From IMG/VR virus record IMGVR_UViG_2534682325_000029: a stretch of 19,196 nucleotides of DNA; one strand, 5' to 3'. The notes beneath the pieces were generated by a model that had not been told where the DNA came from, searched no databases, and saw only the letters and a program-made list of their open reading frames with translations. Source of the DNA: a virus (taxonomy: Duplodnaviria > Heunggongvirae > Uroviricota > Caudoviricetes). The position numbers were made by a program, and so were the translations under genes. This document shows, one piece after another, positions 17,239-18,452 of this stretch. The first letter of the stretch is position 1; each line of letters begins with the position of its first letter.

Positions 17239-18129
17239 TCAGGCTGCCAGATCATCGTTTCCGATGGAAGCATAATAAGCTTTTTCTGCTTCTGCCGGAG
17301 GAGTATGGCCCAGCCTTCCCAGCAATCGTCGATTGTTATACCAGTCCACCCACGTTAGTGTGGCCAGTTCCACTTCTGCACGGTTTTTCCAGCTCTTACG
17401 GTGTATTACCTCCGCTTTGTAAAGACCATTGATGCTCTCAGCCATCGCGTTGTCATACGAGTCGCCTGTACTCCCTGTTGATGCCAGTAATCCGGCTTCT
17501 TTTAGTCGCTCCGTATAGGCCAGTGACACATACTGAGAGCCTTTATCGCTGTGATGGATGGTGCCAGACGGACGACGGGCCCACAACGCCTGCTCCAGCG
17601 CATCCAGCACGAATGTCGTTTCCATAGACGATGAGACCCGCCACCCCACGATGTATCCGGCAAACACATCAATGATAAACGCCACATAGACGAAGCCCTG
17701 CCATGTGCTGACGTAAGTAAAATCAGCCACCCACAGCTGGTCAGGTCGTTCTGCCACGAACTGACGGTTTACGCGGTCGCCTGCGGCAACGGCTTTCCGG
17801 CTGATGGTCGTACGGACCTTTTTACCCCGGAGAACACCGGCAAGTCCCATAACCGCCATGAGACGTGCCACTGTACATCTGGCCACCCTGATTCCTTCCC
17901 GTAACAACTGACGCCAGACTTTACGCACACCGTACACCTGATGATTTTCATCGTATACGCGCTGTATCTCTCTCTTCAGCCAGTCGTCGTGCTGCGCACG
18001 GGCACTGCGTTTATCCGGATGATGTCGCTGTTGCTGACAATGGTAATACGTTGACGGGGCAATATGCAGTTCGCTGCATACCGGTCCGACCCCGTACTGC
18101 TCACGCAGCTTATCCAGCAGTGGCATCAT
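17239..18129 (-). CDS. IS3-family transposase OrfB (DDE integrase core, 296 aa)
   Basis: Typical IS3 OrfB sequence, including [16 protein letters not shown] and a conserved Tyr-rich C-terminal region. Overlaps orfA by 4 nt in the -1 frame. Confidence 0.88.
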
Positions 18130-18452
18130 TTTTTCCAGAGGCGGTCGAACTCCGCCTTCGCAAAATAAGCGGAAGCCTGGCGAAGGATATCGTTACTGCG
18201 GCGCAGTTCACGATTTTCACGTTCCAGCTCTTTCAGACGCTGACGTTCAGCGCTGGTGAGCCCACCATCACCGCCCCCGGTATCCCGCTCATGCTGGCGA
18301 ACCCAGACACGCAGAGTCTCCGGCGTACAGCCAATCTTTGGGGCAATGGAACAAATTGCCGCCCACTGTGAGTCATATTCATCCTGACTTTCCAGAACCA
18401 TACGAATCGCCCGCTGACGGACTTCGGGGGAAAAACGAGTATTTTTAGTCAT
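18126..18452 (-). CDS. IS3-family transposase OrfA (HTH plus leucine zipper, 108 aa)
   Basis: N-terminal HTH ([15 protein letters not shown]) and coiled-coil [22 protein letters not shown] typical of IS3 OrfA. Ends in the A6 run that overlaps the orfB start. Confidence 0.88.

Follow-up and report, generated by a model that had tools for sequence, protein, structure and literature searches.

Where in the overlap between orfA and orfB does the ribosome change frame in the insertion sequence carried by this viral DNA? The question is raised by a stretch of 19,196 nucleotides from a Caudoviricetes record (IMGVR_UViG_2534682325_000029; hereafter the window), in which an earlier note had placed a −1 slippery sequence at a run of six A residues (A6) immediately preceding the orfA stop codon. 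Judged by its sequence, the element is an intact IS629/IS1203 insertion sequence of the IS3 family, ordinary and well studied, and the IS629-type assignment of the earlier note is upheld by its length, its 25-nt inverted repeats, its HTH_Tnp_1 and rve domains, and its match to the IS3 transposase model. The termini read TGAACC…GGTTCA, i.e., imperfect terminal inverted repeats ending in TG…CA, and the length falls within the IS3 family range of approximately 1.2–1.55 kb. The orfB product contains an HTH_21 domain (PF13276) and the rve catalytic core (PF00665, 96.9 bits) in Pfam, and the OrfAB fusion scores 366–371 bits on the NCBIfam IS3 transposase model NF033516 (cutoff, 160). Compared with IS629, IS1203, and IS3411 of Escherichia coli and Shigella, with the IS1203-family copies in RefSeq serving as a proxy for the ISfinder entry, the element itself displays no difference, having the same length, the same 25-nt imperfect inverted repeats, an orfA of 108 aa, an orfB of 296 aa, and the 0/−1 phases. 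The element together with its right flank is 100% identical to many O157:H7 chromosome copies annotated as IS1203 family, one of the copies in strain ECP19-598 matches it at every base, and the exact orfA protein is found on at least 1000 contigs. Both reading frames and both terminal repeats are intact, as the earlier note had observed, and are the same as those of the commonest copies; its suggestion that the element is still mobile is thus plausible on sequence grounds.

Synthesis of OrfAB through −1 frameshifting is the established expression mode of this element, and orfA and orfB are arranged as two consecutive, partly overlapping open reading frames in relative phases 0 and −1. RefSeq labels identical copies [quoted passage not shown] The frameshift biology of IS629/IS1203 is already known, with the programmed frameshift and the apical loop–internal loop (ALIL) pseudoknot included in RefSeq and Rfam annotation; in E. 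coli O157:H7, the element ranks among the best-known insertion sequences, and the present analysis is of little consequence for frameshifting biology.

The junction is present as the earlier note described it, on the minus strand, and reads 5′ to 3′ …GAC CGC CTC TGG AAA AAA TGA TGC CAC…, the first orfB ATG being formed by the last A of the A6 run and the TG of the orfA stop codon (ATGA at 18129-18126). The window contains a single copy of the 11-mer AAAAAATGATG, against 0.01 expected, whereas the bare A6 run is unremarkable (54 A6/T6 matches in the window against 23.8 expected); the run is notable only for where it lies, in the final sense codons of orfA. The ATG listed for orfB is just the earliest start codon of a frame that continues without a stop for 21 codons upstream of it, and the productive overlap window therefore extends beyond the A6/ATG junction. 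This copy has exactly two Z_ZZN motifs in frame within its overlap window, U_UUU_G and A_AAA. The coordinates are listed in Table 1. The reading preferred here, with a probability of roughly 0.85, is that OrfAB is made by programmed −1 frameshifting mainly at U_UUU(G), ahead of the ALIL pseudoknot, and that A6-TGA-ATG is a stop/start junction lying in the linker of that structure.

Table 1. Features of the IS629/IS1203 copy and of its orfA/orfB overlap, in window coordinates.
Feature	Position	Strand	Details
Complete IS629/IS1203 insertion sequence (by sequence)	17197..18506	minus	1310 bp; bounded by inverted repeats
Left inverted repeat (IRL)	18482..18506	minus	starts TGAACCGCCCCGG; 25-nt arm, 88% complementary to 17197-17221
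Right inverted repeat (IRR)	17197..17221	minus	pairs with IRL
orfA	18452..18126	minus	108 aa; HTH_Tnp_1 DNA-binding protein, ends LWKK*; ORF list; Pfam PF01527, 47.3 bits
orfB	18129..17239	minus	296 aa from first ATG, starts MMPLL; ORF list; −1 frame relative to orfA
Overlap window	18192-18126	minus	both frames open, −1 shift gives OrfAB; orfB frame open 21 codons (63 nt) upstream of ATG, to TAA 18195-18193
Probable principal slip motif U_UUU_G	18165-18161	minus	last U of Tyr UAU, Phe UUU (18164-18162), and G
ALIL frameshift-stimulating pseudoknot region, Rfam RF01497	18171-18055	minus	121.5 bits; gathering score 50
ALIL stem-loop I	18156-18140	minus	GGCGG / AGUUCGA loop / CCGCC; from 18156, after a 5-nt spacer that follows U_UUU (18165-18162)
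ALIL stem-loop II	18094-18055	minus	internal loop UCGGAC 18089-18084
A6 run (candidate site of the earlier note)	18134-18129	minus	two Lys codons AAA AAA; in frame, A_AAA tetramer only (G_AAA_AAA)
orfA stop TGA	18128-18126	minus	sequence
ATGATG, two candidate orfB starts	18129-18124	minus	ATG 18129-18127 and ATG 18126-18124; ATGA-type stop/start overlap

The case for U_UUU_G is made by the anatomy and the frames of the site, the Rfam match, and conservation and covariation across relatives, all of which are observed directly. The match to RF01497 is full length (model positions 1–117 of 117), and RefSeq likewise annotates the ALIL in identical copies. The Rfam model starts at the UAUUUUGC motif, with stem I positioned 5 nt after it. 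Features in common with the ALIL system (RF01497; described for IS3411 by Mazauric et al., 2008) are the full-length match, the slip motif 5 nt before stem I, and a covarying loop–loop helix. In that helix, six pairs join the loop of stem I (GUUCGA, 18150-18145) to the internal loop of stem-loop II (UCGGAC, 18089-18084), and the linker between the two stem-loops is 45 nt long, within the quoted range of 44–104 nt. Where the family consensus has GCUCGA/UCGAGC, GUUCGA/UCGGAC is found in this copy and in its enterobacterial relatives, a difference consisting of one compensatory C–G to U–A change and one U–A to U–G change.

Relatives were collected by a genome-contig scan, which yielded 52 distinct sequences from many phyla with 53–100% OrfB identity and a gapless alignment; a search for homologues of the OrfB protein was saturated by near-identical E. 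coli entries and added no diversity. Of the 52 relatives, 50 keep U_UUY and 51 keep its synonymous first U; the codon preceding the slip codon is always U-ending (TAT in 32 and TAC in none; TTT in 19 and TTC in none), while the third base of the slip codon itself varies freely (U in 36, C in 15). Conservation of UAUUUUGC and stem I reflects, in part, the conserved OrfA peptide (Y/F)FAQAELDR, although selection acting on the RNA is favored by the synonymous positions that are fixed. A full-length ALIL match was obtained in all 20 diverse relatives searched (20/20). Across the 52 relatives, the ALIL pairs are 91.5% paired, against 32–41% in slid controls; the stem-I helix is 96.9% paired, and 97.4% of the cells of the loop–loop helix are paired. 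In the loop–loop helix, compensatory changes replace GC with AU in 5 sequences and CG with UA in 14, the pair types at the two covarying positions being GC/AU/GU and CG/UA.

That the ribosome actually shifts at U_UUU, and how the two sites compare in efficiency, is judged from the literature on IS3411, IS3, and IS6110 and from slip-motif rules. In IS6110 of Mycobacterium tuberculosis, the slip site UUUUAAAG is followed immediately on its 3′ side by a pseudoknot printed with cgcggccgagctcgaccggcc at its start, and the start of that pseudoknot, …ggccgagctcgaccggcc…, may be read as the counterpart of stem I in the present element; IS6110 uses a U_UUA_AAG motif where this element has the tetramer U_UUU, and an engineered A insertion fuses the two frames of IS6110. 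According to the slip-motif rules, U_UUU ranks above A_AAA, which is the weakest of six usable tetramers, and tetramers need a stimulator, being barely shifty when they lack one. The tRNA-Phe decoding UUU would thus slip back by one base, and the ribosome would go on in the orfB frame to produce OrfAB of 404 aa, with the ALIL pseudoknot, starting 5 nt downstream, predicted to stimulate the slip through pairing of the stem-I loop with the internal loop of stem-loop II. Ribosomes that do not shift would end the 108-aa OrfA, a helix-turn-helix regulator, at the A6-TGA-ATG junction. RefSeq has the fusion at U_UUU, from 394 contigs, under the name “MULTISPECIES: IS3-like element IS1203 family transposase,” and this fusion outscores the one at A6 by 4.4 bits on the IS3 transposase model.

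A shift at the A-run itself, as the principal or only −1 site for the OrfAB transposase, is very unlikely. A_AAA is in frame with the stop codon next in the A site, and the −1 frame reads AUG AUG CCA directly; NCBI lists a fusion of the A6 type, from 158 contigs, under the name “IS3 family transposase”; and AAA AAA is kept by all 15 relatives of the enterobacterial clade, including five with no ATG after the stop. These points are set against the surroundings of the run. In frame, UGG AAA AAA gives G_AAA_AAA, whose first base, G, prevents it from being an X_XXZ_ZZN heptamer, which leaves only the weakest usable tetramer, of the class that is scarcely shifty on its own. The comparison underlying the earlier note, with the A_AAA_AAG heptamers of the IS911/IS150/dnaX type, holds as far as tRNA-Lys shifting by −1 on lysine codons; by contrast, the run here is G_AAA_AAA, ends in A rather than G, and has no nearby downstream structure. 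A search for a stimulatory hairpin just 3′ of A6 revealed none that was significant (z = −1.87), the only candidate being a 6-bp hairpin with a 14-nt loop, and the only Shine-Dalgarno-like stimulator seen upstream of A6 was GGAG within stem I, 17 nt upstream and, by eye, too far. The run is situated in the ALIL linker, 3′ of stem I and 34 nt before stem-loop II, in place of the approximately 5–9 nt between a slip site and its structure. Furthermore, AAA AAA before the orfA stop is restricted to the 15 enterobacterial-clade relatives, whereas the remaining 37 of the 52 retain the 0/−1 arrangement with the ALIL, and the opening of the orfB frame 63 nt farther upstream is unnecessary for a shift at the stop. 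The proposal of the earlier note, that OrfAB arises by a −1 frameshift at the orfA/orfB overlap, is borne out by the −1 phase of orfB and by the annotated programmed frameshift but not in its choice of A6 as the principal site, since the conserved signal lies approximately 30 bases upstream; the functional frameshift window is essentially found elsewhere, at U_UUU_G with the ALIL. Judged by its motif, the A6 run may be at most a weak secondary A_AAA slip site, at which a −1 slip of tRNA-Lys beside UGA could yield a second, minor fusion (…FDRLWKK-MMPLL…).

Slippage by RNA polymerase, which would add one A within A6 and place orfB in frame at the mRNA level, is highly improbable. One inserted A would produce the same …LWKK(K)MMPLL-type fusion, and the use of transcriptional realignment, alongside ribosomal frameshifting, has been stated for IS3-family elements. 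However, productive transcriptional slippage is known from runs of approximately 8–9 or more, A6 is shorter than such runs, runs of six are common in the window (54), and the conserved ALIL structure favors a ribosomal mechanism.

The junction is best read as a stop/start overlap of the ATGA type, an arrangement of a kind that would permit OrfB to start through termination–reinitiation. IS3 has a similar ATGA overlap, and the present element resembles that precedent of proposed coupling for OrfB in that the TGA stop and the ATG share bases; unlike IS3, IS629 has a second ATG immediately after the first. In its strict form, in which the A6 run is no more than two Lys codons, translational coupling at AUGA produces free OrfB, and no frameshifting takes place there, this reading has somewhat less than an even chance. 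Of the 52 relatives, 36 have an ATG in the −1 frame that overlaps or directly adjoins the orfA stop (ATGA, TAATG, or TGATG), and most of these 36 lack an A-run; IS629 OrfB lowers transposition frequency, according to a cited report. Against the strict form, 16 of the 52 relatives have no such ATG, five enterobacterial ones among them keeping A6, and coupling does not preclude slippage at a low level. No clear Shine-Dalgarno sequence was seen by eye before the orfB ATG.

Two genuine programmed sites, U_UUU_G and A_AAA-UGA, would produce two fusions of 404 aa, identical except for a linker of 11 residues, that both aid transposition; this possibility, which falls a little below even odds, extends the preferred explanation and does not contradict it. 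The title of the article on IS629 by Chen & Hu (2006) says that two frameshift products are involved, and two products fit the exactly two in-frame Z_ZZN motifs in the overlap window. The A6 run is, moreover, retained across the whole enterobacterial clade. For IS629, TTTTG and AAAAT are reportedly both active in lacZ fusions, so that A6 may be more important than the label “minor” implies. On the other side, A6 is clade-restricted and has no stimulator, and its retention is probably within E. coli-like Lys codon usage: AAA AAA, as opposed to AAG, is kept across about five related lineages, which are too few independent ones for a selection test, and retention in about five lineages would be within the expectation from such usage. 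An evolutionary version of this idea is rather unlikely, namely that A_AAA-UGA is a “shifty stop” gained as a second −1 site by the enterobacterial IS629 clade and kept even where the ATG is absent, with an OrfAB isoform that has the complete OrfA C-terminus tuning transposase activity. If it is true, the second site in enterobacteria was apparently already reported for IS629 in 2006, and only its clade-restricted origin would be new.

The preferred reading, a shift mainly at U_UUU_G, also carries a lesson for annotation, because the cue of a stop codon overlapping an ATG beside an A-run misses the conserved signal by approximately 30 nt. Public annotations themselves disagree on the OrfAB join position, and the joins in NCBI are inconsistent, being of five kinds (AYF-C, AYF-G, WKK-M, WKK-L, and DR-PLEK), a spread that the sequences from the OrfB homologue search helped to reveal; the RefSeq join placement was considered as decisive for the shift site and was rejected in view of these five placements. 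IS629, IS3411, and IS1203 were looked for in the supplements of Sharma et al. (2014), and none of the three occurs there.

The flanks of this copy are CCG and GTA, and thus no matching 3-bp target-site duplication is present. In O157:H7 strain ECP19-598, two inverted parental copies have 3-bp target duplications of GTA and CCG, respectively, and the present copy joins one flank from each of the two; the missing duplication is explained by the origin of this copy in recombination between two inverted copies of the insertion sequence. A recombinant copy implies a 4.5-kb prophage inversion of the segment between the two inverted copies, and its flanks are somewhat useful when the structure of O157:H7 prophages is compared between strains.

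The insertion sequence is an IS629/IS1203 copy on the minus strand, with a HTH_Tnp_1 match in OrfA and HTH_21 and rve integrase core matches in OrfB. The NCBIfam IS3 transposase model recognises both candidate OrfAB fusions with scores well beyond its cutoff. The element and its right flank are 100% identical to many Escherichia coli O157:H7 chromosomes, and OrfA and OrfB rank, as exact sequences, among the proteins found most often in public data. In RefSeq, identical copies bear the label [quoted passage not shown], and an "AL1L pseudoknot" is annotated alongside. A review of IS629/IS1203v places orfB in the -1 phase and attributes the fusion transposase OrfAB to programmed -1 frameshifting. 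Repeats, domains, RefSeq identity and this review bear out the earlier note on an IS3-family element producing OrfAB by a -1 shift. None of the frameshift biology is new; Rfam and RefSeq both encode it already. The note's observation at the orfA/orfB junction is confirmed and its interpretation is partly supported.

Coordinates of features in the window
Feature	Position	Strand	Remark
sok antitoxin RNA (Rfam RF01794)	10888-11062	plus	114.9 bits
Three tRNA genes	13978-14224	plus	Ile/Arg/Arg by matching ECP19-598 annotation; downstream of antiterminator Q gene
STnc100 sRNA match	14998-15170	plus	100.8 bits; after tRNAs
SASA-family esterase gene, 616 aa	15307-17157		after STnc100
Inverted repeats, 25 nt, 88% complementary	17197-17221 and 18482-18506		bound 1310-bp element
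orfB as mechanically listed, 296 aa	18129-17239	minus	begins MMPLL
Second orfB ATG	18126-18124	minus	
First orfB ATG	18129-18127	minus	last A of A6 run and TG of stop
orfA stop TGA	18128-18126	minus	
A6 run	18134-18129	minus	
orfA, 108 aa	18452-18126	minus	ends LWKK*
Stem-loop II	18094-18055	minus	
Unpaired linker, 45 nt	18139-18095	minus	
Stem-loop I, GGCGG-AGUUCGA-CCGCC	18156-18140	minus	5 nt past UUUU
U_UUU(G), in frame, 5′ of stem I	18165-18161		last U of Tyr UAU (18165), Phe UUU (18164-18162), G (18161)
Conserved UAUUUUGC motif	from 18167	minus	start of ALIL model
Terminase small subunit gene	18687-19196	minus	runs off window

The minus strand reads ...GCT TAT TTT GCG AAG GCG GAG TTC GAC CGC CTC TGG AAA AAA TGA TGC CAC... 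across the junction, as the earlier note described, with orfB in the -1 frame relative to orfA. Since the orfB frame stays open for 21 more codons upstream of its first ATG, ending at a TAA (18195-18193), a productive -1 shift is possible anywhere in 18192-18126. In the overlap, U_UUU and A_AAA are the only Z_ZZN motifs in frame. The A6 run is read UGG AAA AAA, i.e., G_AAA_AAA; this does not fit the X_XXZ_ZZN heptamer pattern and leaves the tetramer A_AAA as the one qualifying motif. In systematic measurements in E. coli with a pseudoknot present, slip motifs ranked A_AAG >> U_UUC > U_UUU > C_CCY > A_AAA; the 5-nt spacer of that IS3 system is shared by U_UUU in the window's copy. A bare A6 is unremarkable (54 A6/T6 runs in the window vs 23.8 expected), and the 11-mer AAAAAATGATG is unique in the window. 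This window-wide excess is about twofold over dinucleotide-preserving shuffles, of which 0/200 reach 54.

The Rfam model of the apical loop-internal loop (ALIL) pseudoknot, RF01497, aligns over its full length to 18171-18055 (minus strand) with 121.5 bits, the gathering score being 50. Both stem-loops are predicted independently by ViennaRNA, and the stem-I loop GUUCGA (18150-18145) is complementary to the six-base internal loop UCGGAC of stem-loop II (18089-18084). The A6 run lies in the linker, 3′ of stem I and 34 nt ahead of stem-loop II; by the time a ribosome is positioned on it, stem I has been unwound and the pseudoknot thereby broken. The only structure found 3′ of A6 is a hairpin of 6 bp closing a 14-nt loop, whose fold is not significant (z = -1.87). 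The adjoining UGA stop could favour P-site slippage and is the sole feature in favour of A6. In IS6110, a pseudoknot follows immediately on the 3′ side of the slip site UUUUAAAG; as printed, it starts ...ggccgagctcgaccggcc..., which we read as a counterpart of stem I in the window's copy.

A protein-based OrfB scan of one-genome-per-species contigs, unbiased regarding the RNA signal, provided 80 loci with OrfB identities of 53-100% from Proteobacteria, Acidobacteria, Spirochaetes, Actinobacteria, Chloroflexi, and others. Nearly all carry (TAT/TTT) TT(T/C) GCN CAG GCG GAG CTC GAC CGC... in the overlap, and all 20 of 20 diverse loci yielded full-length ALIL matches (87-119 bits). In a gap-free alignment of 52 distinct 117-nt sequences, U_UUY occupies the slip position in 50; the synonymous third base of the preceding Tyr/Phe codon is U in 51 (TAT 32, TAC 0; TTT 19, TTC 0), and that of the slip codon itself varies freely (U 36, C 15), a signature expected of selection for U_UUY rather than for the peptide alone. 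ALIL pairs, pseudoknot included, are formed in 91.5% of cells vs 32-41% with partners slid by 1-3 columns. Pairing in the loop-loop helix reaches 97.4%, with compensatory changes at one pair (GC 42, AU 5, GU 4) and at another (CG 38, UA 14), where the window's copy has the UA variant. The lysine pair AAA AAA, by contrast, precedes the orfA stop in only 15 of 52 relatives, every one a member of the enterobacterial IS629-like clade. In the remaining 37, orfA ends without a slippery run, e.g., in CGA CCG AAG TAA or CGA CCC CGG TGA, and both the 0/-1 phasing of the genes and ALIL are retained. The proposed element and mechanism class stand, but the principal site had been placed about 30 nt away from the conserved U_UUU and ALIL, and the functional frameshift window would lie essentially elsewhere. 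Among decayed relatives, one (L006) has the slip motif mutated to UUUG and stem I altered, and in three (L007, L034, L067) the 5′ half has been replaced or is interrupted. In Oceanispirochaeta copies (L042 group; L042 1159-1275), the final sense codon of orfA independently forms an A_AAG tetramer directly ahead of the stop.

To our knowledge, the only IS629-specific frameshifting study is that of Chen and Hu from 2006, in which lacZ fusions reportedly showed activity for both TTTTG and AAAAT near the orfA 3′ end, with cooperation between the two resulting fusion proteins. Because this fits the two Z_ZZN motifs, A6/UGA retains a substantial probability, somewhat short of even, of truly functioning as a second slip site within the enterobacterial IS629-like clade. 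On the IS3 transposase model, the fusion made at U_UUU has a small advantage (370.7 vs 366.3 bits). Deposited annotations cannot discriminate between the sites: the fusion of U_UUU type appears in RefSeq as "MULTISPECIES IS3-like element IS1203 family transposase" (394 contigs), that of A6 type is on record too (158 contigs), and joins for the same element have at least five placements (AYF-C, AYF-G, DR-PLEK, WKK-M, and WKK-L; public proteins P0001-P0164), so that one DNA sequence has several "transposase" sequences. A -1-frame ATG overlapping or abutting the orfA stop (ATGA, TAATG, TGATG) occurs in 36 of 52 relatives, mostly without an A-run, and is an arrangement associated with termination-reinitiation. 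IS3 itself has an ATGA overlap of this type. Five enterobacterial relatives retain A6 but have TAG-CC without ATG, so the ATG taken to define OrfB is not universal. According to a cited report, IS629 OrfB lowers transposition frequency.

Intact, canonical frames and inverted repeats make the window's copy plausibly active, as had been suggested, although no target duplication is present: CCG adjoins IRL, the left inverted repeat (flank 18507-18518), and GTA adjoins IRR, the right one (flank 17185-17196). In O157:H7 strain TR01, the copy beside the esterase gene has GTA on both sides. In strain ECP19-598, the same prophage carries two copies in inverted orientation, separated by about 4.5 kb (locus L082, 3850-5159 and 9691-11000), one between the esterase and holin genes (duplication GTA; 0 mismatches to the window's copy) and one inside the terminase large-subunit gene (duplication CCG; 1 mismatch). 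In the window, the first copy's flank toward the esterase meets the second copy's flank toward the terminase genes, which are inverted. Recombination between the two copies would yield such a product; this implies inversion of a segment of about 4.5 kb from the lysis cassette (holin) to terS. Of the complete E. coli genomes searched, none covered the whole junction (best coverage 96%), which could be strain-specific or an assembly artefact across the repeat.

The element cuts the terminase large-subunit gene, whose 5′ part is within 18507-19196 on the minus strand, so the prophage is predicted to be packaging-defective unless complemented. The tRNA-to-esterase interval in the closest strain's annotation holds TerB- and DUF3927-family genes and no toxin gene. 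The Q gene, tRNAs, STnc100, and esterase are arranged as in the late region of Stx-type lambdoid prophages, and the sok match points to a putative hok/sok-type toxin-antitoxin locus.
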